A stretch of DNA of 64,000 bases, taken from contig CAWVBZ010000001.1 of NCBI GenBank assembly GCA_963927785.1, forward strand, positions 67,783-131,782, in the 5' to 3' direction. The stretch's first letter is position 1, and every line of letters starts with the position of its first letter. The position numbers and the translations under genes are program-made. This stretch comes from Candidatus Saccharimonadota bacterium (GTDB lineage Bacteria; Patescibacteriota; Saccharimonadia; Saccharimonadales; Saccharimonadaceae). Under the pieces are notes generated by a model that saw nothing but the letters and a program-made list of their open reading frames with translations, did no database searches and was not told where the DNA came from. This document shows, one piece after another, positions 2,664 through 52,825 of the stretch.

Positions 2664-3272
2664 ATGAAGGTTAATTTCTCGCTGGAAATGAAGCCGAAGG
2701 AGTTCACCGAGCTTATCGAAATCATGGGTATGCCCCCGGTTGTCGGCCAGCTCGACACGCCGAGTATGCTCGATGCATTCATGGATCAGGTCGCCGGGGC
2801 GAACGCCGAAGAGTCGAACCCCTGTGCTATTGCTGATGATGCTCAGAGTGCCACGGACAAAGCGTCCATGGAGCAGGCCGCCGGGGAGAACGACGAAGAG
2901 TCGAGCCCCTGTGCTATTGCTGATGATGCTCAGGGTGCCATGGACAAAGCGTCGGGCGACGCTGAGTCCGCCGAGGAGACGGCCATAAACAACAGGGGCA
3001 AGAAGATTCTTGCTGAGGATTCCGAGGCTGCGACAGCCAGCGGTTGCGATTGCGATCGTGACGCTGCTGATCAGGATGAAGATCCGACTGATGATGGGCC
3101 GGCCCACGATGGACTGTGCATGTCCACTGTCAAGATCTACTATCCCGACACCGGCAAGGATGTCACCATTCACAAGACGTTCGATCCTGTTACGGGTGAA
3201 CTTATCAGCCGTCGGACCGATACGCGGTTCCCGGATGGTAAGACGATCATGAAAGAGAAAGTCTACGCTTAG
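2664..3272 (+). CDS. Acidic low-complexity hypothetical protein with internal duplication
   Basis: 202-aa ORF, SD GAAGGAAG, own promoter, GC-rich. Confidence 0.7.
   Translation: MKVNFSLEMKPKEFTELIEIMGMPPVVGQLDTPSMLDAFMDQVAGANAEESNPCAIADDAQSATDKASMEQAAGENDEESSPCAIADDAQGAMDKASGDAESAEETAINNRGKKILAEDSEAATASGCDCDRDAADQDEDPTDDGPAHDGLCMSTVKIYYPDTGKDVTIHKTFDPVTGELISRRTDTRFPDGKTIMKEKVYA
2781..2954 (+). repeat. Two 87-bp (29-aa) tandem units
   Basis: MDQVAGANAEESNPCAIADDAQSATDKAS / MEQAAGENDEESSPCAIADDAQGAMDKAS. Confidence 0.9.
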
Positions 3273-9750: not shown

Positions 9751-11406
9751 CTATTGATGAGCCATATAGACGACGTCATAGTTGTCGTCAGTCTCGGTGG
9801 GATCATTAATGACGCTGTCAACATATTGATTGAGATTAGTACGATATTGCTGAGCGCCGAATAGCAATACCTTGGCAATGAAATTGCGTCGCAGATTATA
9901 CTCGTATGGCACAGTCCACTTGTCGCCGCCCAGATTCAGGGCGCCATAGCCGGTGGCGATAGGTGTAATGGCGTCGTCAAAATTGTAAATACTGACAATC
10001 CAGTCGAAATTGGTCATTAAGTATTTAACGGTTTCACAACGTAACATGGCGATATTAACACGTTCGTCACTACTGTATTGCAGCTGTGCTGGTGTGCTGA
10101 TGGCGAATAGAAAGTCCATATAGCTAGTCAGATAGCCTGCGTCAATAATGTATTTAGTCACGCAGTTGTGAAATAGCGCCATATCACCGTCGGATGGAAA
10201 GAAACCGGCTGGGCCGCTGATGGTTTTGAGTAGGCCACGCAACGAAATGTCGTTAGTGCACTCAGTCAGATATTGCTTGACCGGCTCGCTGGTGGTGCGT
10301 AACAAATAGTCGTGCAATCCATCCACCAGCACATCAATAGTGCGATAGTCCAGCACGGGCATAACCACTTCCCAGTTGGACCGATCGATCAAGTCAAACC
10401 TGATTAGCTTGTCGTCAATGTAGAATTTGTCTATTGTGTCAGCCAAGGCGTCAATGCTGGCCTGCTGGCTATCAATCAGATCGGTGATTTCCTCAGGCGA
10501 ATCCAATAGGCATTCATAGCCAGTGTTCAATGCAGTATTGGTTGATGATTTAGTAATGTCGGTAGCCTCCTTGCTAAGGATACCAAGGCCAATCAAATAG
10601 TTGACGATTGTAGCTGGTGACGTCACAGTGTCTAGCTCGGAATTATCAAAAATATTGCTGTAGTTCGCAATAATGTCGGGGTTGATATAGCCAATAGCCC
10701 AGGCCAACAGGGCGACACGTTGGCGAGCGCTTTGGATGGCTTGATCGCGAGTAGGTCCGACTGAGTACTGCCAATAGGCCTGTTGCATTGTTTGCAGTTG
10801 ATCGTCACTAGTATCCCCCGCAAGATCCTTCAGGGTAATCCAATTACGTAGTGGCTTAATTAGGGCGGTGCTAATGTAGTCCCGGCTATGATTGTAGTAA
10901 AGCAGAGCATCGCATTCGATAATATAGCCATCGTAGTCAATACAGGCGTGCTCGTCGTCCAACTCTTTGACCGTAAATTCAGTGTCATTGGCCGCTACCA
11001 GAATGTCGCCATCATTGACATGGCAATAGCATAACCGATCATCATTTTGGTCACGTACGTCCATAACTAAATCCCGAAAATACTGGACCGCTGAGGCGTC
11101 GTCTGGGCCATTAGCAGTATTTAAAATGTACTTAGTGAGCTTATTGCTGTCCTTAGCCCGGGCATACACCTCAACAATGGAGCCGGTTAAGCGGTATCCG
11201 GTCTGGTTATTAATAGTTGCGTTGGCATTGTCGACAATATGTAGATAAATAATGTTGTCGGGCTGAATTGTCCTGGCCTGCTGGATGGTTAGGCCATAGC
11301 AGTAGTTTGGCATTTGCAGCCCCAAATCGTTGGCTGCGTCGGCTAAGGTGCTATATCTTGTGGGCACCCCTGTCTTAGACTTGCTAGCTGTTGTTTTGTT
11401 TGCCAT
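9751..11406 (-). CDS. Hypothetical protein, paralog 2 of tandem family
   Basis: 551-aa ORF, SD AGGAGG; N-terminal YSTLADAANDLGL (NUMOD1-like). Confidence 0.8.
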   Translation of the reverse strand: MANKTTASKSKTGVPTRYSTLADAANDLGLQMPNYCYGLTIQQARTIQPDNIIYLHIVDNANATINNQTGYRLTGSIVEVYARAKDSNKLTKYILNTANGPDDASAVQYFRDLVMDVRDQNDDRLCYCHVNDGDILVAANDTEFTVKELDDEHACIDYDGYIIECDALLYYNHSRDYISTALIKPLRNWITLKDLAGDTSDDQLQTMQQAYWQYSVGPTRDQAIQSARQRVALLAWAIGYINPDIIANYSNIFDNSELDTVTSPATIVNYLIGLGILSKEATDITKSSTNTALNTGYECLLDSPEEITDLIDSQQASIDALADTIDKFYIDDKLIRFDLIDRSNWEVVMPVLDYRTIDVLVDGLHDYLLRTTSEPVKQYLTECTNDISLRGLLKTISGPAGFFPSDGDMALFHNCVTKYIIDAGYLTSYMDFLFAISTPAQLQYSSDERVNIAMLRCETVKYLMTNFDWIVSIYNFDDAITPIATGYGALNLGGDKWTVPYEYNLRRNFIAKVLLFGAQQYRTNLNQYVDSVINDPTETDDNYDVVYMAHQ

Positions 11407-11470: not shown

Positions 11471-12421
11471 CTAATCTTGCGGTGGCAACCATCTGCCTCT
11501 ACTTCGGCAAAATGCAGTAATTTGTTCGCCCGTTATACCAATAAATGGGTATCTATTGTTGTCTGGATTGCTATCGTTGCTATTGAGTGGATTCCTGCCA
11601 ATGATGCCAAGACTAATCAGATTTCTTATAACGGAGTCTGGGCCATAAACTGTTAGATCGAGATTATCGTTATTATCGTAAATGTTGCTCAACTTGCTCA
11701 GCGCTGCCTTGCTGAGGTATCCAAGCGCTTGAGCCAGACTGGCTGCCCGATAATGCACATCGGTTAGATCGGCCTTGCGGCCAGTGTTTAGCCCGCCAGA
11801 GTATTTCCAGAAAGCATCTGCAGCGGCCTTGATCTGACTCGGCTTGATCAGTTTCTTTAGCTCGGTCCAACGTTGCCATGGGTCAATGGCTACTGTGGCG
11901 TATAAGCCGTCCTTTGCCCCGTCGCATTCAATGAGATATTTACCGGCGTAGGTAAAACAGGTATGACCGGCTATCATTCTCACTGCAAACTGACCGTCGC
12001 TTTCCTTTTTGAAGAATAAGTCTAAATGGCCCGCGCGACAGTACCATAGAGTGTTGCCACTGAACCAATTGGCTATTTCTACTGTTTTGAAATAAATGAC
12101 GCGCTGTTGTTGGTCGTTGCGATATGTATCAACATCCATTTTCTTGAGCTGGTTGTCTTGGAGGTAATACAGACGAGCACGTCCATAAAAACCGGCATAG
12201 CCAGACATTGTGTTGTAATTGATGAAGCCCTGGCTGTTTATTTGTATATAAATAATTTGTGATTTATCTATTTGCTCAAAGGCACTCACTGTTATGGGGC
12301 TAACGTCTTCTGGCGCCATTAGCCCTAAATCTTTAGCAGCCTCCTCTACTGATTCGTATGAATGGCAATTATCTGCTTCAGCATTCTTATTTGCAAACCG
12401 CCCGTTAGATCTTTGACTCAT
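11471..12421 (-). CDS. Hypothetical protein, paralog 1 of tandem family
   Basis: 316-aa ORF; N-terminal YESVEEAAKDLGL (NUMOD1-like); colinear similarity to 9751..11406. Confidence 0.8.
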   Translation of the reverse strand: MSQRSNGRFANKNAEADNCHSYESVEEAAKDLGLMAPEDVSPITVSAFEQIDKSQIIYIQINSQGFINYNTMSGYAGFYGRARLYYLQDNQLKKMDVDTYRNDQQQRVIYFKTVEIANWFSGNTLWYCRAGHLDLFFKKESDGQFAVRMIAGHTCFTYAGKYLIECDGAKDGLYATVAIDPWQRWTELKKLIKPSQIKAAADAFWKYSGGLNTGRKADLTDVHYRAASLAQALGYLSKAALSKLSNIYDNNDNLDLTVYGPDSVIRNLISLGIIGRNPLNSNDSNPDNNRYPFIGITGEQITAFCRSRGRWLPPQD

Positions 12422-12456: not shown

Positions 12457-15339
12457 TTATAAGAATAGTCTTCCCTGCCCGGTTGAGGTGGTTTCAACAT
12501 GCTTTAATTCAAAATAGTTGAGAATATCGTGCATGGTGGCATTGCGATTCTTCCAATCGTAGAACGTTTCATCCCCGACAATAACATAATGCCAGGTATA
12601 GTTCTGGCGCTTGTCGGCTGGTAGTGCATTGATGCGGTTTACCCAATGGATAGCAGCTTTCTTCTTCCTTAAGACGTCAACTTGTTGGAGTTGATTTTGT
12701 GCTTTGGTTTCTACCATGTAAATATCATTGACTATGCGGACAAAGAAGTCAGGGATATAGCTTGATGGTAGGCCGTCATTACGAACATAGCGAAGTCTGA
12801 CAAAGGTATGCTTACTCTCGATAACTTTTGCTACGGCATCTACTTCGCCGTCATGATCGGCGAACAGCAAAAAGTCGCGTTCGAAGCCGCCTTTGTTTTT
12901 TGGATAAGGTGTCAGTTCATAGATGTTTTTAGCCAAGTTAACGGAATAGTTTTCGCGAACAAGTAGACTGTCAATACTGGATAATGGCGTAAAATGGACG
13001 CTGACATTTCCGGTGGTTTCCATATGTTCTTGTGCGCCGACGATTAGTCCACTAATCTGTTTTACTATATGGTTAATGACGCCTGATATAAGCAGTACAT
13101 TATACGCCAGTTTGTCGTTTTGCGGATTAATCGTTTGGCCAAATAAGTAGTTGCGAATGTAGTTGTCAACTATACCAGTAACTTGAGATAAGTTGATAGC
13201 TAGTGCGGGGTATCGTTGTTGCTTGTTGTCTGGCTGATACAAACTATTGACGATACGATTGACGAGTCTGGCTAGATAGTCATTGTAGCTAGTTGATTGG
13301 AATATGTTGTTGCTCACTACAAAATCGCCAATCGTGGTATGTGATGTTGCTTCGCGAGTAATCCATCGGTCGTTGGTTGGGGCTATCTTTTCTAATTCAT
13401 CTAATGCCATTGGATATTGACGTAGTGAGCTAATGTTCGCTCGAATATCTGGCATGGTTTGTTCCCCTTCGCTAATAATTGTTGGAAAGTAGAAATCGTA
13501 TTGTTGATAATTATCCTTTAAACTAACCCTCTTAAAGTCGTTGATGATATCCTCATTCTCTTTGCTGGTGTCAGCAAAATCGGCAACTGTGCCATCGGCA
13601 ATAAGCTCGTCGTAGAATTGACGAAAGGCTGGATGCTCCACGATGCTCAGAATGTCGAAGAAACTTTGCGGTTGTTTGTGCTCCATAAAGATTCTCCGAC
13701 GGTCGTCAGCTTTCATTTGGTCGATCTCTGGGTCGCCTCGCCACATTAACCTTAGACCACGACCAATAGTCTGTTCCAATAGAATTCCTGACTGGGTTGA
13801 GCGCAACGGTACAATAACGCAAATATTATTAACATCAAAGCCCTCGCGAAGCATTAAGACGGATATGACAACTTTGGGGCTGTCGTGTTGGTCTAGCGAC
13901 GATAGCTTTAATTTAATATTATTCCACTCCTCTTCGCCGACTTCGCCCTTTTTATTGCTGTGAATTTCCAGAATGTCATCATCAGATAAGCCTTCTTGGA
14001 TTAAAAAGTCGTGCACATGGCCAACAACTTCAGTCTCCTCGCACATAATCATCATCTTGGGTGATTTATTGGGCTGTCCCAACTGGGCAAAACTATCTTC
14101 CAGGAGTTTGAGCTTAGCCAATCCGGCTCTTAGCATGGTGCGTTGCCCATCAGATATGTCAATAATATGTCCGTTTTCGCGAATTGCACGAAAATCCAGT
14201 TCCTCAGTGTTGAGCTCCTTGCGCTCGTCGAGAGCTATAGTTTTTACTAGACCTGACTGGATGGCGGTTCTTAAGTTAAAATCGATGACGATATGTGGAA
14301 AGTAAATTTTGCCTTTACCCTGCTCCATGTATGGCGTGGCTGAGAAGTCCACTTGCATGTATTTGCTTGGCACTTTTCCGTCGGCTATATAACGCAAACT
14401 CTTTTGCCACTCTACCTCGCCAACTCGCTCGCCTCGCTTCTGGGTGCCGTGAATGTGGTGTGCCTCGTCATTAATAACCATAAGATTATCTAGATCGTGC
14501 AAATATTCTAGAGCTTGCTTATTGCTAGATCCGCCGTCCAAAACGTCTAGACTATTACCAGCGGTTGTTCCTGGTCTAACTGGTAGACTATAGCTAGAGA
14601 TCTCACCTGGTCTGTCGCTCTCCTCGTCTTTGTCAACCATTAACAAATGGTAGTTAGTAATAGCCAACAAGCCATCGCCAGTTACTTTATTGCCGATCTC
14701 CTCCTTTCGAACAACGCATGAGTTAAGAAATCCAAAAACTTCTTGGCGATACTCTTCTGGGATAAACAGCTCCTGATTTTTGTACAAATCACCAGTATTA
14801 ATATCTCTAGTAGTACCATCGTCGCTGAGCTTGCCTTTGAAGGCATCCAGCAGTCGTTCGTAGACGATGAGCCCGGGTGCTACTAACAGAAAATTGCGAG
14901 TGTAGTTACCCGGCTCGTTGTGCCTAGCATTAAGATATTGCCATAGTAGTAGGGCTTCTAATACCCATGTTTTGCCTGTCCCAGTGGCCATTTTGACGGC
15001 ATATTTGGGGTGGTTGTATATTTCGTCGCTAAAACGTTCTAGATTAATCTGTCCCTTTGCAACCAATAAATCCGGGCTGATATGTTCATAAATATCGCGA
15101 ACGTTCTGGCAATGCATGACATCGTGCAGATAAATGATATTTTTGATTGCTTGGCACTGCCCGGCGTGAAAGTTGACTTGGCGTTGCTCGCAAAAGCTGT
15201 TGCCAAACCAGTATGTCAACAAATTGCGAGTTGTTGGCGTAACGCTGGCCAGAAAGCTGCCCTCTTCCCAGGCGTCGTTAACACGATTTGTAATCAGTTT
15301 AGCTAGTTCTAATGGCGGATATTGATTGAATGAACTCAT
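12457..15339 (-). CDS. res: Type III restriction enzyme Res subunit (SF2 helicase plus PD-(D/E)xK nuclease)
   Basis: KMATGTGKT (Walker A), [22 protein letters not shown]-terminal YIPDF...VETK; overlaps the mod stop. Confidence 0.9.
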
Positions 15340-17308
15340 AGATTTACCTCTCGGATTACTTCGCTCTCTTGGCCGAAGACGTCAACAGCTCGAACAGCGA
15401 TGCGTCGCTTTTGTTTATGCGTAACTGGCAAGGTGGTTTTAGCGGCTACTCTTAGCGGGTCATTGTCACCATTACCGGTATTGCCACGATAATCTTGCCA
15501 GACACTACGGAAGGTGGCGCCATCATAATCTGGGTCTATACTCCAATATTCAATTAGGGCTAGTGGATCGTGGCCGATAACTTCATTAACTTTAGCTCGG
15601 TTTTTGTCGTCTAGTGGTAGGCTGTCGCCGCTAATAATAACGTAGTTGTCCAGCTCAACTGTAAGTCTGTCCGGCTGACCGGGCTCGCCCAGTGTTATTT
15701 CGGGTTGCTTAATAGTCAGGTATTGTAGGCTACTAAAACGAATCGGCGTTGTGATGGTACCGTCGGATTGAACGGCCACTTGACTGCTGAGCTTTTTAAA
15801 GCTGTTTTTACTCTTAATCTGATCTAACAAATCTGGCGGAATAACCAACAGATCTAGCTGACCATTGATTATTTGATTTTTGTAAATTTCCATAATCTCA
15901 CTGATGCGACTATCGAAGTTCCAGCCCAAAACAACTACCTTACGATAACCGCCCAGGGTATTCTCGCGAGCGTCGATAGCTTGGTCTATGATGTACTTGT
16001 TGACTACTTGTGACGGACTAGCTACCATCACTAAAGTTTTATTACCTGGCAATGTCCCTAAATTACGTCGCGGACATTCCTCAACTGATAGCGGTAACGC
16101 TCCATATAATTTTAGAACGATCTCATTTAGATCACCGATTCGATAGCGACTGCCCATGGTACTGGTTAGCTGTTCGCGCTGGTAATCGCCAATGGACTGA
16201 TACAGAAATGGTTGAGCATTATTGTCGATTAGACGTTTGCGCATAATCATGGTGGCAGGTTTGCCAATATCACTAGTAATCCATCGACGTCCTAGCTTCT
16301 CGGCAACAGCTGCAGTTGTGCCAGACCCGCCAAAGAAGTCAGCGACAATTGACCCTTCATTTGATGACGCTTCGATGATGCGCTCGAGCAGTTTTTCTGG
16401 TTTTTGGGTGGCATATCCTACTACCTCTGGGTTCCAGCCAGTAACCGTTGGGATATCTGTCCACCAATCAGTTATTGGCGTCCCTCTACTGAGGTCTAGA
16501 TCTTTTGCTTGCCCGCTAGCGTTATTTGTGCTACTTTTGCCAACGCTTTGTGTATTTTCCTTGTATGGACGATATGAAATGTGAAATACGTATTCTGATG
16601 ATTTTGCATATCTGAGTAGAATATCGTGCTTTCTCGGATAATCGGTCCTGGGAGTAGCGCCCCCATTGTATGTCCACACGATTTCGTTTCTTAATTTATC
16701 TTTCCCGAAAATGTCGTCCAGAATGACTCGCACATATGAGTCAACGTGCCAATCGACGTGAACATATAGCGTCCCCTGTTCGCTCAATAATTCTCGCATT
16801 AATACTAGTCGTGGATACATGTAGCGTAAATAGGCTAGTGTGCCACGAACCTCGACTTTGTTGTCGCCATGGCCTAGCTCCCCGCTCCAGGTGTCGGCAT
16901 AGGCAAACTGTTCCAAAATGGTAGGCTTCTGCTCGATATCCGCGCCTGGCAGGACAATTTTGGTTCGATAATCAGCCTTACTATCATATGGTGGATCAAT
17001 GTAAATTAAGTCAATCCTGCCACGCATACTGGGTAGGCTGCTAGCTTCATCGCCGGCCAGTAATGCTTGCATGGCCAATAAATTATCGCCGTAAATTAGG
17101 CGATTATGCCAATCTAAGCTGTGGGGGGGGTATTTTCAGTATTGGCCCTAATTGCTAACTGAGCCTGCTCTGAATTTGGATAAACCAACTCGTTTGTCTG
17201 TAGTGATATCCGCGAGCTGTTACTCAGCCCGTCCAGAATGCGTTTAGCCTCCCTGCGACCTTCTTTAACTACTTCTGGTAGCATATCAATAATACTTGTG
17301 CCTGCCAT
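15336..17308 (-). pseudogene. mod: Type III adenine methyltransferase Mod, split by a 1-nt frameshift in a C8 tract (OFF phase as sequenced)
   Basis: DPPY and DFFGGSGTT motifs; N-terminal ORF 17114..17308 has SD AAGGAG and joins the [16 protein letters not shown] frame if the tract is C9 or C6; C9 gives 657 aa. Confidence 0.85.
17123..17130 (-). repeat. Homopolymer C8 (G8 on +) simple sequence repeat at the mod frameshift
   Basis: GGGGGGGG at 17123-17130, exactly at the frame junction. Confidence 0.9.
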
Positions 17309-17385
17309 CTTCTTCTCCTTATTGTCTACTGTTTATATTATCACAAAGATCGAAGCCATTATTTTGGCGGTATAATCAGATTATT

Positions 17386-18279
17386 ATGGATGCGCAGCCG
17401 GACGATTATTATTATGATCAGTCATTTCGCGAATTGATGGATATTGAAGAGCGACTATCGCTAGACGACATTATTGATAGCGATAATCTGAATATTGATT
17501 TGATCCGAAAGTTTGCCAAAATTGTGGATGCTCGCTTTGAGGAGCAAAATGACACCATCGATCATCTACTATCGCGCATCGACAAACTCGAATATGTTAA
17601 CAAGAAGTTGGCTAGTCAACTAAATGATATTAAACGTAAAGATTCCGTTAAAAGTATCAAGATCGAGACTGATGATGTATCGACAGACAGCTTCGTCGTG
17701 CCAGTTCGAGTTAATGATGATGTGGCGATTAACCAACAGAAATTGACGGAGTTTTTGCAGACTCATAAATATATTCGGATTCTAATGCTGTCAGTCTACT
17801 ACCGGGGTAAACCGTGGTGGATTAACCTGATCGTCGATGGCTACAATGATCATCTCATAGCTGGCCGAGTGTCGAGCAATACTGAAACGCATAGTTTTAT
17901 GAGAGATCAGATTATTGGTTTTAGTGAATGTTCCGAGGAGTATATTAGCTCCATTGAGGCCAATGGGTATCAATCTAAGCAGTCGGTTGACGTTGGCGAT
18001 ACGGTTCAATGTGAGGTAACAATGTCGACTGGCGAGATAATTAATCGCACTATAACCATTGTGCCTGCTACTTATAAATATATTTATAATGGAGTTTCCC
18101 GGGATGTCGCTAGTGGTCCAATTAAAAAAGCTACATATGAAATCGATGTGGATAATGGCGAAATAAGCAATGAGTCGTTGGTTGGCAAATCATTACTTAA
18201 CCGCCACGTTGGAGACGTCGTTGTTGTGTATGGTAAAAATAGCCACGAGTTTAGATATAAGATAAAGCGAATTGGCTAA
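17386..18279 (+). CDS. Protein with N-terminal coiled coil and C-terminal GreA/GreB-like domain
   Basis: C-terminus ISNESLVGKSLLNRHVGDVVVV resembles GreA ISxxSPLGxALLGxxVGD; start chosen at ATG 17386, just downstream of TATAAT at 17371. Confidence 0.6.
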   Translation: MDAQPDDYYYDQSFRELMDIEERLSLDDIIDSDNLNIDLIRKFAKIVDARFEEQNDTIDHLLSRIDKLEYVNKKLASQLNDIKRKDSVKSIKIETDDVSTDSFVVPVRVNDDVAINQQKLTEFLQTHKYIRILMLSVYYRGKPWWINLIVDGYNDHLIAGRVSSNTETHSFMRDQIIGFSECSEEYISSIEANGYQSKQSVDVGDTVQCEVTMSTGEIINRTITIVPATYKYIYNGVSRDVASGPIKKATYEIDVDNGEISNESLVGKSLLNRHVGDVVVVYGKNSHEFRYKIKRIG

Positions 18280-49323: not shown

Positions 49324-49528
49324 AAGCTGAATATATTGCGATTAGGTTGACTAGGCGGGTGAACCGTGTTCATTAATGAAGTTGACTGCAAGGCGACTCC
49401 TATGAAAACGTTCAATACGACAATCAAATGTTCCCTGACACTTTAGTTAGTGCCTGCGCTTATATTGTACAATGCTAAAATCCCAATGTGGCAGTGTATA
49501 AATTAATCACATGGCTCATGTGTGAGGA

Positions 49529-50883
49529 GTTCAGCTATACGATTATTTGATACGACTATCAAACTTCCGTTTGTTTAAGAACCTTCGTGTCTTCGTTCAG
49601 CTATACGATTATTTGATACGACTATCAAACTGTGCATTGTTTACCCCGAATCAGCTCACCGTTCAGCTATACGATTATTTGATACGACTATCAAACGCCT
49701 GAGGAAGCCAAAAAACAGCATCATCGGTTCAGATATACGATTATTTGATACGACTATCAAACCGGGCCAATAAAGGTGAGTTTGATGTAGAGTTCAGCTA
49801 TACGATTATTTGATACGACTATCAAACGTTTCTTCCATTATTATCTCCTTTCTGTCTGTTCAGCTATACGATTATTTGATACGACTATCAAACGCATGGC
49901 TGCCGACATCAAGGCGTCTGCAAGTTCAGCTATACGATTATTTGATACGACTATCAAACGGTGGCATATTGGTGGCCGGTGGTATTGCGGTTCAGCTATA
50001 CGATTATTTGATACGACTATCAAACGCTCATCGATGTGTTCGTCGTTAGGTTGGTGTTCAGCTATACGATTATTTGATACGACTATCAAACGTATCCCAT
50101 GGGTTGCCACTGGTTGGCGTAGTTCAGCTATACGATTATTTGATACGACTATCAAACAATCAGCATGTTGCGTTTTTCTGGGCTGTAGTTCAGCTATACG
50201 ATTATTTGATACGACTATCAAACTGCTTGCTGGCTTATCTCTCCAGCTACCAGGTTCAGCTATACGATTATTTGATACGACTATCAAACGCACCCGTCGT
50301 TGATTGGGCGAACATATCCGTTCAGCTATACGATTATTTGATACGACTATCAAACCCGTAGCAATAACGTAAAGTAAAAAATACATGTTCAGCTATACGA
50401 TTATTTGATACGACTATCAAACCGGTGGTATGCTCTCTATCCTATCTATCAGTTCAGCTATACGATTATTTGATACGACTATCAAACGGCGCCAGCCCTT
50501 AGCATAGCGTCCTGTAGGTTCAGCTATACGATTATTTGATACGACTATCAAACACGATTAAGGAAGCAAGGGAGATCGTCGATGTTCAGCTATACGATTA
50601 TTTGATACGACTATCAAACGTCATGACTAGAGTATATGACGGATGGGTCTGTTCAGCTATACGATTATTTGATACGACTATCAAACGATTGCGGATAGTA
50701 TACCGCAAACGATTGAGTTCAGCTATACGATTATTTGATACGACTATCAAACGGTATGCCGGGCACATTCCTGTTTCGCGCAGTTCAGCTATACGATTAT
50801 TTGATACGACTATCAAACCGAATAACCGCCACCGTCCAATTTAATCGGTTCAGCTATACGATTATTTGATACGACTATCAAAC
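49529..50883 (-). CRISPR. Type II-A CRISPR array: 21 repeats (GTTTGATAGTCGTATCAAATAATCGTATAGCTGAAC), 20 spacers of 29-31 nt
   Basis: 36-nt repeats with about 66-nt period; one variant repeat at 49727 (C>A at 49733); orientation from GTTT start, leader and cas genes. Confidence 0.98.
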
Positions 50884-50974
50884 CTCAAATTGGCTTGAGC
50901 GTATTTTGTGCAGTCTACGACAATGACCGCAAAACACGTATAACCTACTGCTGCTATCTTATCATAAAATGTCC
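50884..50974 (-). promoter_or_regulatory. CRISPR leader ending in ATTTGAG
   Basis: CTCAAAT at 50884-50890 reads ATTTGAG on the minus strand next to the first repeat, a known type II-A leader-end class. Confidence 0.85.
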
Positions 50975-51643
50975 TTATATCTCGCACAGATCAGCGTCGA
51001 CAATAATCCGGTCACACCCCTCTATTTTTCCATATTGATGACTCTCAATTAGCATAATATCCAGCTGATGATTATCAATATTGCCGATTAGTCTAGCCAT
51101 TTCTCCGTCCAATAAAACAGTACGTAAATTAATAAAGATGAATAATTTAATGCCAGCTAGCTCGGTCATCATGGACATATAATCGGTCAGTAAATCGACA
51201 AAGTTATCTTCGTCGTCGACAATGTGCAGGTTAACGGCCTTGGCAATACTATCAATGGCAAACTCGTCGTTGGCAGACACTTCGAATGTGAATTCCTCGG
51301 CATCCACTACTCTATCTAGATATTGAATAATGCGAGATTTAAATTCGTTTGTCTCCATGTATAACTCGTCAGACAAGGACTGTTTGACGAGTAGCTTTAG
51401 TAAAGTTGTCATAGCGCGTCGGTTATTAAAGTCTAATTTTAGAGGGTTGTAGATAACATCGACATCTTTAGCGAAATTGACTGGCTTACCAGCGTCGGTG
51501 AAATGAAATGGCGCTGCATCAATATCAGATAACCCTCGCAAAATGTTGCGCAAGAATAGCGGCGATTCAATAACTAGTTCATTTAAGTGATTGTTCTCAG
51601 CCCAATCAAGGTGACGTTTTAATTCGGTGTGGGTGAATTTCAT
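50975..51643 (-). CDS. csn2: CRISPR-associated Csn2 (short form)
   Basis: 222 aa; follows cas2; LFIFINLR and IIVDADLCEI termini typical of Csn2. Confidence 0.9.
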   Translation of the reverse strand: MKFTHTELKRHLDWAENNHLNELVIESPLFLRNILRGLSDIDAAPFHFTDAGKPVNFAKDVDVIYNPLKLDFNNRRAMTTLLKLLVKQSLSDELYMETNEFKSRIIQYLDRVVDAEEFTFEVSANDEFAIDSIAKAVNLHIVDDEDNFVDLLTDYMSMMTELAGIKLFIFINLRTVLLDGEMARLIGNIDNHQLDIMLIESHQYGKIEGCDRIIVDADLCEI

Positions 51644-51960
51644 AGTATGATCATCCTATTGTCATTTTGTATATAGGTGTCATCCAATTCGCCTACGACG
51701 ATTTTGATGCTGGCAAATTGCCGTTCAGTAACACTCATAACTTGCACTATTCCCTCCGGCGGCTTGTGCTTCTCGATTCGGTCGCAGGCCTGATCGACCG
51801 CGTGCATGTTGATACAAATTTTAGCGTAAATCGACTCCTGCATCATGGTAAATCCGTCATCGATTAGATATTTGCGAAAATTCCGATAGTGCTTCCGCTG
51901 AGCCGATGTTTCGGTGGGCAAATCAAACATAACCATCACACGCATAAATCTATAGCTCAT
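51640..51960 (-). CDS. cas2: CRISPR-associated Cas2
   Basis: MSYRFMRVMVMFDLP...FRKYLIDDGFTMMQESIYAK. Confidence 0.97.
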   Translation of the reverse strand: MSYRFMRVMVMFDLPTETSAQRKHYRNFRKYLIDDGFTMMQESIYAKICINMHAVDQACDRIEKHKPPEGIVQVMSVTERQFASIKIVVGELDDTYIQNDNRMIIL

Positions 51961-52825
51961 ACCAATCCATTATTTTAGTAGTATCTTTATCCTCGATAGC
52001 ATTAAATACACTGCGAACGTATATACCAATGGCATTGTTTAAATATTGCTCGGAGTTGTTTATCTTAACTCTTGAATTCAATAAATCTAACACTGCAGCT
52101 TTTTCGTCTTTGGCAAATTCTATGTAATGGCAGTTGTATGTAAATAGATCTACAATCGGACGAAACGTTTCCATCAGATCAGAACCTAAATTGAATGGGT
52201 TGCTGGCGTTGTCGTGCCATAGCCCCAGCTGCGTTAAATAGCCATTGGCGGCGATTTCACGATTAAAACATGACAACAAGACTGTGTAGCCATAATTTAA
52301 TACGGCATTGCGAATGTCGGCACTATTGCGATAAAAATCCATGCCAAATAAAGTGTTGAAATAGACTTTGGCGGAGTGTCCCTCGCGGTTAGTTGTGTCA
52401 CCCGGTTGAACTTCGTTGGTAAATTGATCCAATTGGGCGGCACGGTCTGGCTGGCCGATTTTGCGTAGTACGCTAGCCTGGTTCTGAATTTTCCGTCTAG
52501 TGATCGACTGCCAGACTAGTGCTTTAATCTCGTCACTCCATTTGATTTGCGATCGTATCTTACCAGAACTAATATAGTGACCATATAATGGTGTCAATTC
52601 AGCTGTTGGGTTGTGCTTGTTGTCGCAGAAAATAATTTTGATTTTGCGAGCGGCAATCTCGGCAAGCAAGTAAGCCGTCAAAGATATGGCTGTGGTGGCG
52701 CACATGATGACGGATATATCATCAAGAAATATTCGCTTTTCGTCTTCGCCATCACGAATAACGATCGAGCCAAGTTTGTAATCTAGCTTACATCGTTTCT
52801 GGATATACACCACCCGCCAGGACAT
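51950..52825 (-). CDS. cas1: CRISPR-associated Cas1 (type II)
   Basis: MSWRVVYI, TNREGHSAKVYF, NAVLNYGY, GLWHDN, NLGSDLMETFRP. Confidence 0.97.
   Translation of the reverse strand: MSWRVVYIQKRCKLDYKLGSIVIRDGEDEKRIFLDDISVIMCATTAISLTAYLLAEIAARKIKIIFCDNKHNPTAELTPLYGHYISSGKIRSQIKWSDEIKALVWQSITRRKIQNQASVLRKIGQPDRAAQLDQFTNEVQPGDTTNREGHSAKVYFNTLFGMDFYRNSADIRNAVLNYGYTVLLSCFNREIAANGYLTQLGLWHDNASNPFNLGSDLMETFRPIVDLFTYNCHYIEFAKDEKAAVLDLLNSRVKINNSEQYLNNAIGIYVRSVFNAIEDKDTTKIMDWYEL

Follow-up and report, generated by a model that had tools for sequence, protein, structure and literature searches.

Whether a methyltransferase gene broken at a single run of cytosines is decaying, has been misread in assembly, or has been sampled in the OFF position of a switch is the question raised by a restriction-modification (R-M) locus of a probable Saccharibacterium from the chicken gut. 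The locus lies in a stretch of 64,000 nucleotides of contig CAWVBZ010000001.1 (assembly GCA_963927785.1, Candidatus Saccharimonadota bacterium), the whole of which is referred to below as the window, and it consists of a type III mod gene, frameshifted at a tract of eight C, followed by an intact res gene. The comparison of this locus with public assemblies showed that its reading as a putative phase-variable type III R-M system is well supported. We consider it highly probable that the locus is a contingency locus of the modH/modU kind, in which the operon is switched by slipped-strand mispairing at the poly-C tract of mod.

The tract, which is G8 on the forward strand and C8 on the coding strand, is the sole lesion in mod (coordinates are collected in Table 1). 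Read from the mod ATG, the C8 frame ends at a TAG after 64 residues, and the remaining part of the gene lies in another frame. The addition of one C (C9) gave on translation a single uninterrupted open reading frame (ORF) of 657 aa, in which codons 60-63 read ACC CCC CCC CAC (T-P-P-H), and the C10 frame stops after 68 codons. C9 is the predicted ON length and C8 and C10 are the predicted OFF lengths. The landmarks of the C9 protein follow in the order NRLIYGDNL (residues 69-77), DPPY (105-108), a variable middle part, a further segment at 300-312 and FFGGSGTT (325-332). The exact 657-aa ON protein is present among public proteins (P0001) and is encoded with C9 on the ENA contig L001, which matches the window over 7,384 bp at 99.95% identity; the two differ in three mismatches and a single gap, which coincides with the tract. 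A preliminary description of the window had claimed that the only lesion in mod is at C8, that C9 restores a 657-aa frame including the NRLIYGDNL segment and that res is intact, and all of this was borne out by the translation and by P0001.

The length of the tract was compared in Logan contigs from 28 of the public runs listed (X numbers), nearly all of them chicken-gut or faecal metagenomes, with one air metagenome and one set under a coded organism label, to which ENA contigs from independent assemblers (L numbers) were added. Besides the window, G8 (OFF) was found in X8, X25, X15, X27 and X10, which carry a reference-like haplotype, in X7, X11 and X32, in X9, in X30 and X31, and in ENA L084 and L085. 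The G9 (ON) length was found on the reference-like haplotype in L001, X5, X6, X14 and X28, and also in X12 and X29, and G10 (OFF) in X1, X2 and X3, which share a 17076T haplotype, in X13 (= L083) and in ENA L082. Seven of the 26 samples with a defined length were ON (9) and 19 were OFF (8 or 10). An exact-pattern scan of Joint Genome Institute (JGI) metagenome contigs for the flanks of the tract found none.

The main contigs of X11, X12 and X13, all from one chicken-gut study, have identical sets of 50 (positions 14600-16412) and 37 (16708-17700) differences from the window and also share a swapped block of the target-recognition domain (TRD) and a fixed 1-nt deletion at 17362. They differ at the tract alone, which is G8 (depth 24.3), G9 (9.8) and G10 (8.7), respectively. 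Two length changes at one site are therefore set against zero visible base changes in about 2.8 kb, which puts the mutation rate of the tract orders of magnitude above that of ordinary sites. The X11-type haplotype occurs with G8 also in X7 and X32, and an X9-like haplotype occurs with G8 (X9) and with G9 (X29). From the recurrence of the same lengths on several single-nucleotide polymorphism (SNP) backgrounds we infer that the switching is reversible. The contigs of X26 contain a de Bruijn bubble, in which 51- and 52-nt contigs with G9 (3.6x) and G10 (3.3x) lie between contigs stopping at the tract, and the tract is also the exact point at which the contigs of X4 break off. Mixed tract lengths, which the preliminary description had named as the observation that would support switching, were thus seen in the assembled contigs, as 8, 9 and 10 on identical SNP backgrounds and as 9 and 10 in one sample.

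The coding capacity behind the tract was assessed from the ratio of nonsynonymous to synonymous substitution rates (dN/dS) between three OFF alleles, those of the window (C8), L082 (C10) and L084 (C8). For mod the ratio was 0.05-0.06 in the C-terminal two-thirds and 0.05-0.09 in codons 1-200; the latter take in, in the ON frame, the 60 codons that precede the tract. For res it was 0.10-0.135. No other stop or frameshift was present in mod or res of the three OFF alleles, at synonymous divergence (dS) up to 0.41. Both genes are under strong purifying selection, even between OFF alleles, and since this selection acts on full-length Mod, the lineage must regularly pass through the ON state.

Three alleles with the same tract at the same locus (P0001, P0002 and P0007) have nearly identical N- and C-terminal parts and unrelated central TRDs. 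In X7 and X11-X13 the joint runs from 16412 to 16708, with 310 unrelated letters between, and 44 TRD clusters were distinguished among the best 120 homologues. The pattern formed by these predicted TRDs is the classic mod-allele structure, and mod is a putative recombination mosaic. Between strains, dS was several-fold higher in mod (0.16-0.41) than in the adjacent res (0.04-0.05).

A second tract was found in a sister lineage with about 70% protein identity, which also comes from chicken-gut samples and in which the cassette adjoins bipA/typA instead of the GreA-like gene. Some alleles of this lineage read DGVGGGSS at codons 24-31, the glycines arising from a coding-strand poly-G tract at codons 26-29, and other alleles read DGIGNGSRVALQ, without the tract. 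The sister tract is G9 and the gene full-length (ON) in L088, L089 and L090; frameshifted genes were found with G8 in L093, L094 and L095, with G10 in L091 and L092, and with G11 in L087. In L089 (ENA ERZ21564551 s5919.ctg007509l) both res (656 + 287 aa) and bipA (186 + 414 aa) are split, and these splits look like long-read assembly frameshift errors, so that its G9 is less reliable than the other lengths. That two homopolymers at different codons of orthologous genes in neighbouring lineages should each vary around a predicted ON length of 9 argues more strongly than anything else found here that the switching is selected and not merely tolerated.

The origin of the first tract was deduced from 80 homologues of Mod from species-representative genomes, which are at most 61% identical to it. 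The nearest sixteen belong almost all to Saccharibacteria or other Patescibacteria, and are followed mostly by Bacteroidales, together with Helicobacter cetorum, Sulfurimonas and others. Each of the 80 has an intact frame, complete from residue ~4 onwards, and lacks a homopolymer at the site of the tract. Because the tract-less homologues are all intact, the fused ORF is taken to be ancestral and the tract to be a recent, lineage-specific acquisition. In the conservation profile the tract occupies a part of the Mod N-terminal region with comparatively low conservation, and it is because of this that the Pro-Pro insertion is tolerated. Among the top 58 matches, N-terminally truncated gene calls were explained by tract length in all seven cases checked (P0002, P0007, P0023, P0040, P0041, P0048 and P0058). 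The nearest relatives of both Mod and Res are from Saccharibacteria, and together with the GC content of 46% they form an indirect basis for placing the organism in that phylum. The eight neighbouring genes queried (~8.6-26.3 kb, besides mod and res) gave no match to a Saccharibacteria representative locus. The mod-res pair occurs in differing genomic contexts and is evidently mobile; its affinity to Saccharibacteria at the gene level is therefore suggestive only.

Composition alone is weak evidence for the tract, and the case for it is made by the comparison with other sequences. The window (GC content 46%) contains 155, 11, 2, 0 and 1 runs of G or C of length 4, 5, 6, 7 and 8, respectively, the tract being the longest, and the number of such runs expected per 64 kb is 0.4-0.8 under an independent and identically distributed or a Markov model. 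The observed decay with length showed that long G/C runs are depleted in the window, so that the tract is an outlier and the expectation lies far below that of the models. In 144 kb of related Saccharibacteria loci one G7 and no longer G/C run was found.

Both subunits were used to identify the system. Mod matched Pfam N6_N4_Mtase (4.9e-42) and, as its best PADLOC model, MTase_III (9.6e-71, 237 bits), and comparison with the PDB gave the EcoP15I Mod (4zcf, 1.3e-15) and the Mod 6k0w (6.2e-15). The order of its motifs, DPPY, central TRD and FxGxG, is the beta-class order of type III Mod. Res matched Pfam ResIII (2.7e-14) and PADLOC REase_III (8.8e-23, 78 bits), and its superfamily 2 (SF2) helicase motifs, including QxIGRGLR, and the C-terminal PDF...ETK nuclease motif were conserved in 13-14 of 14 homologues. 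The match of Res to the canonical NCBIfam type III Res model was weak (27.6 bits), and that to NCBIfam BPTD_3080 reached 206 bits, at a cut-off of 800. The mod stop and the res start overlap by 4 nt (ATGA, 15336-15339), and the order mod then res was found in all relatives examined. The locus is a predicted type III R-M operon. EcoP15I (4zcf) likewise has a mod-res operon, a Mod that is a beta-class N6-adenine methyltransferase and a Res composed of an SF2 helicase with a C-terminal PD-ExK nuclease. Unlike the system proposed here it is not phase-variable, the similarity is confined to the methyltransferase core, and the Res described here matches type III models only moderately. A candidate Shine-Dalgarno sequence, GAGAGG, stands 7-8 nt ahead of the res ATG, and given this plausible site of its own, the polarity of mod OFF on res may be incomplete. 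Scans for promoters and terminators found nothing that rose above background.

Three other explanations of the broken frame have to be weighed. The one that survives best is pseudogenisation, in which a dispensable R-M system is being lost and the tract is a mutational hot spot without adaptive role. It would account for the proportion of OFF alleles, which at about 73% of those sampled is close to the two-thirds expected without selection on the frame; we nevertheless hold it to be improbable, because the dN/dS of 0.05-0.13 in both genes and the lack of secondary lesions between OFF alleles, the retention of the tract in three TRD alleles, the independent sister-lineage tract with the same ON length rule and the integrity of all the tract-less homologues are not what a decaying gene would leave. 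The second explanation is that of an expression rheostat, in which slippage during transcription, or frameshifting of ribosomes, at the C run would restore the frame in a fraction of the products, so that a certain amount of Mod would be made from C8 and C10 alleles too. RNA polymerase is able to slip on long homopolymers, and in X6, a run labelled as metagenomic RNA-Seq, the locus is covered by a 9.7-kb contig that has G9 at a depth of 29.8. The source of that contig, however, may be DNA or an ON population, the best-documented cases of slippage concern A/T runs, and a rheostat would modulate, not replace, the ON/OFF polymorphism at the DNA level, which leaves it a slightly poorer chance than pseudogenisation. 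The weakest explanation, that the true tract is uniformly C9 and C8 a sequencing or assembly miscall, is barely credible, since, although homopolymers are error-prone and several supporting contigs have a coverage of 2-5x (2.7x for L001), differing majority lengths occur at good depth (G8 24.3x, G9 29.8x, G10 13.6x), independent assemblers agree, the same lengths recur across samples, G8 was found again in no fewer than 13 further samples or assemblies, and the same 3.1 kb has no other indel polymorphism except a fixed T4-to-T3 at 17362. Uniform G9, or uniform G8 with further decay in relatives, had been named in the preliminary description as results that would speak against switching; what was found instead were varying lengths and low dN/dS.

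Alternative gene models were tried and rejected. A separate small gene followed by a shorter Mod, starting from TTG 17078 or from an ATG (MQALL), is incompatible with the N-terminal 60 codons, which are conserved and contiguous with Mod in all 80 homologues and are under purifying selection in the ON frame; moreover, the product of a shorter start would be without the conserved NRLIYGDNL segment. The TTG start chosen by the gene caller in the C10 allele P0002 is due solely to a SNP of that strain, lacks an evident Shine-Dalgarno sequence and would cost the protein 52 conserved residues, and this allele was counted as OFF.

Several observations weigh against the interpretation as a selected, reversible switch. 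The data from the runs are assembled contigs, and the lengths are accordingly contig-level calls; mixing within a sample is represented only by X26, with its single bubble of low depth, and by X4, with its break in the contigs. The share of ON samples, about 27% (7/26), is about what an unselected random walk over the three frames gives, so that it is only from the purifying selection and the convergence with the sister lineage that selection for switching as such, and not mere tolerance of a hypermutable tract, is deduced. In a published survey of mod genes the threshold for mononucleotide tracts was nine bases (PMC5909438); the ON form (9) and C10 reach this length, and the allele of the window itself (8) is one base below it.

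In the contingency locus that we propose, the tract would gain or lose a C during replication, presumably by strand slippage, at a rate far above that of base substitution. At C9 the full 657-aa Mod would be made, which would methylate the target sites and form the restriction complex with Res. At C8 or C10 translation would stop after 64 or 68 codons, and the cell would lose restriction along with methylation and would not kill itself, because type III Res depends on Mod for DNA recognition. The population would then be a mixture of R-M-ON and R-M-OFF cells, of which the window would represent an OFF (C8) member. A cell that turns ON while its DNA is unmethylated runs a known risk, which type III systems tolerate.

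The benefit of such a switch would probably be bet-hedging, in which ON cells would be defended against phage and foreign DNA, and OFF cells could acquire DNA, in a naturally competent group, or replace the TRD safely. The integrity of res and the purifying selection on it imply that a working restriction barrier matters, and defence bet-hedging is thus the most economical reading. The sequences suggest that ON/OFF bet-hedging of the restriction barrier is at least as likely a benefit as a phasevarion. A methylation-dependent change of expression, that is, a phasevarion, is possible, and the multi-allelic TRD would fit the pattern of the known systems. A broader and tentative reading, which we regard as rather doubtful although clearly less so than the three explanations weighed above, is that in the ultra-small, naturally competent Saccharibacteria, with few conventional regulators, simple-sequence-repeat (SSR) contingency loci, having arisen independently on at least two occasions in sister lineages of the gut, would flip type III R-M, gate phage defence against DNA uptake, and also act as a true phasevarion, for example on surface or host-attachment functions.

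Table 1. Coordinates of the type III R-M operon and of other features of the window
Feature	Position	Strand	Basis
Poly-C tract (C8; G8 on + strand), codons 60-63 of mod, putative switch	17123..17130	-	Sequence; 8, 9 or 10 in other assemblies
mod, predicted type III beta-class N6-adenine DNA methyltransferase, 657 aa at C9; frameshifted here (64-aa ORF 17308-17114 + long downstream frame)	15336..17308	-	Pfam, PADLOC and PDB matches; P0001
Premature TAG in C8 frame, 64-aa product	17114..17116	-	Translation
AAGGAG Shine-Dalgarno sequence, 6 nt upstream of mod ATG (17308-17306)	17315..17320	-	Read from sequence
Predicted Mod TRD, residues ~185-300	16410..16757	-	Conservation profile; block 16413-16707 swapped wholesale in other alleles
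res, predicted type III restriction subunit, 960 aa, intact	12457..15339	-	Pfam ResIII, PADLOC REase_III, conserved motifs
316-aa ORF	11471..12421	-	
551-aa ORF	9751..11406	-	
Divergent GreA-like gene, ~297 aa	17387..18279	+	Match of last ~46 residues to GreA/GreB C-terminal domain
Tandem duplication, 87-nt unit	2780..2953		
CRISPR array, 21 repeats	49528..50907		
ORF, probably cas1 or cas2 (see text)	50975..51643		Position between array and Cas9
ORF, probably cas1 or cas2 (see text)	51950..52825		Position between array and Cas9
Cas9, 1392 aa	52836..57014	-	Pfam Cas9_REC, HNH, RuvC, PI

The gene divergent from mod resembles GreA/GreB in its C-terminal domain only, and its long N-terminal part is without match. 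The 77-bp divergent intergenic region between the two genes contains the T4-to-T3 deletion (17362-17365), which is fixed in the strain with the P0002 TRD (X7, X11, X12 and X13) and lies just upstream of a TATAAT-like hexamer. Directly downstream of res are the 316-aa and 551-aa ORFs, which are mutual paralogues (~30% identity over ~270 aa) and gave no Pfam, NCBIfam or PADLOC match. The 316-aa gene is found downstream of res also in L001, L082 and L084, and the 551-aa gene in L001; the two may also belong to a defence island.

Farther away, the repeats of the CRISPR (clustered regularly interspaced short palindromic repeats) array are ~36 nt long (GTTCAGCTATACGATTATTTGATACGACTATCAAAC) and its spacers ~30 nt, and the array lies next to Cas9. 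The two ORFs between them (50975-51643 and 51950-52825) are probably cas2 and cas1, and the array and Cas9 constitute a predicted type II CRISPR-Cas system in a probable Saccharibacterium. The tandem duplication near the start of the window has 2.0 copies, 91% identical, and lies in a region in which a 236-aa ORF on the minus strand and a 202-aa ORF on the plus strand overlap. An Rfam scan of the 64 kb found no tRNA, rRNA or other family at gathering score.

The type of switch described here is already well known. Of all type III mods, 17.4% bear an SSR; such genes have been found also in commensals and environmental species, and those with a G[n] tract include modH, modJ and modL of H. pylori and modU of C. 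upsaliensis (PMC5909438). The present locus resembles these four in the G/C homopolymer of ~8-11 nt that breaks or restores the mod ORF, in the conserved N- and C-terminal regions around a hypervariable TRD with many alleles, and in the small-genome, host-associated nature of the hosts. It differs from them in its host, a probable Saccharibacterium from the chicken gut, and in being known from sequence alone; the H. pylori-type Mod (6k0w) is distant from the Mod described here (E 6e-15), and the homologue in a Helicobacter cetorum metagenome-assembled genome (MAG), which is 52% identical to it, has no tract. The modA phasevarions of Haemophilus influenzae and Neisseria are likewise type III mods switched ON and OFF by slipped strands and have many TRD alleles. 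Their repeat, however, is a tetranucleotide, AGCC/AGTC, and not a homopolymer, and methylomes and regulons have been demonstrated for modA, whereas the evidence presented here is of sequence only. In several modA strains res is inactive; here it is intact and under purifying selection.

In Candidatus Saccharibacteria, type I "epigenetic invertons" have been described (PMC7672463). They share with the present locus the phase-variable DNA methylation, which is predicted here, and the candidate phylum, but in the invertons the shuffling of hsdS by an invertase changes the specificity, whereas here an SSR frameshift would switch the system ON or OFF. In the literature searched, no report was found that links SSR-driven mod switching or phasevarions with Saccharibacteria or the candidate phyla radiation (CPR), the invertons being the one related finding, and this type of switch appears to be unreported in Saccharibacteria.

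With this finding, the switching of R-M systems by simple-sequence contingency loci would be known also from Patescibacteria/CPR, which have genomes of about 0.8 Mb and few regulators and depend on a host bacterium. The population evidence, one strain with three tract lengths, is unusually direct for data taken from public metagenomes alone. Annotation pipelines call such genes split or N-terminally truncated, as in the seven calls that were traced to tracts, and methylation-based binning of such MAGs may vary between samples. Saccharibacteria have been transformed via natural competence (PMC10633639), and a restriction barrier that may be ON or OFF bears on the genetic tractability of these bacteria.

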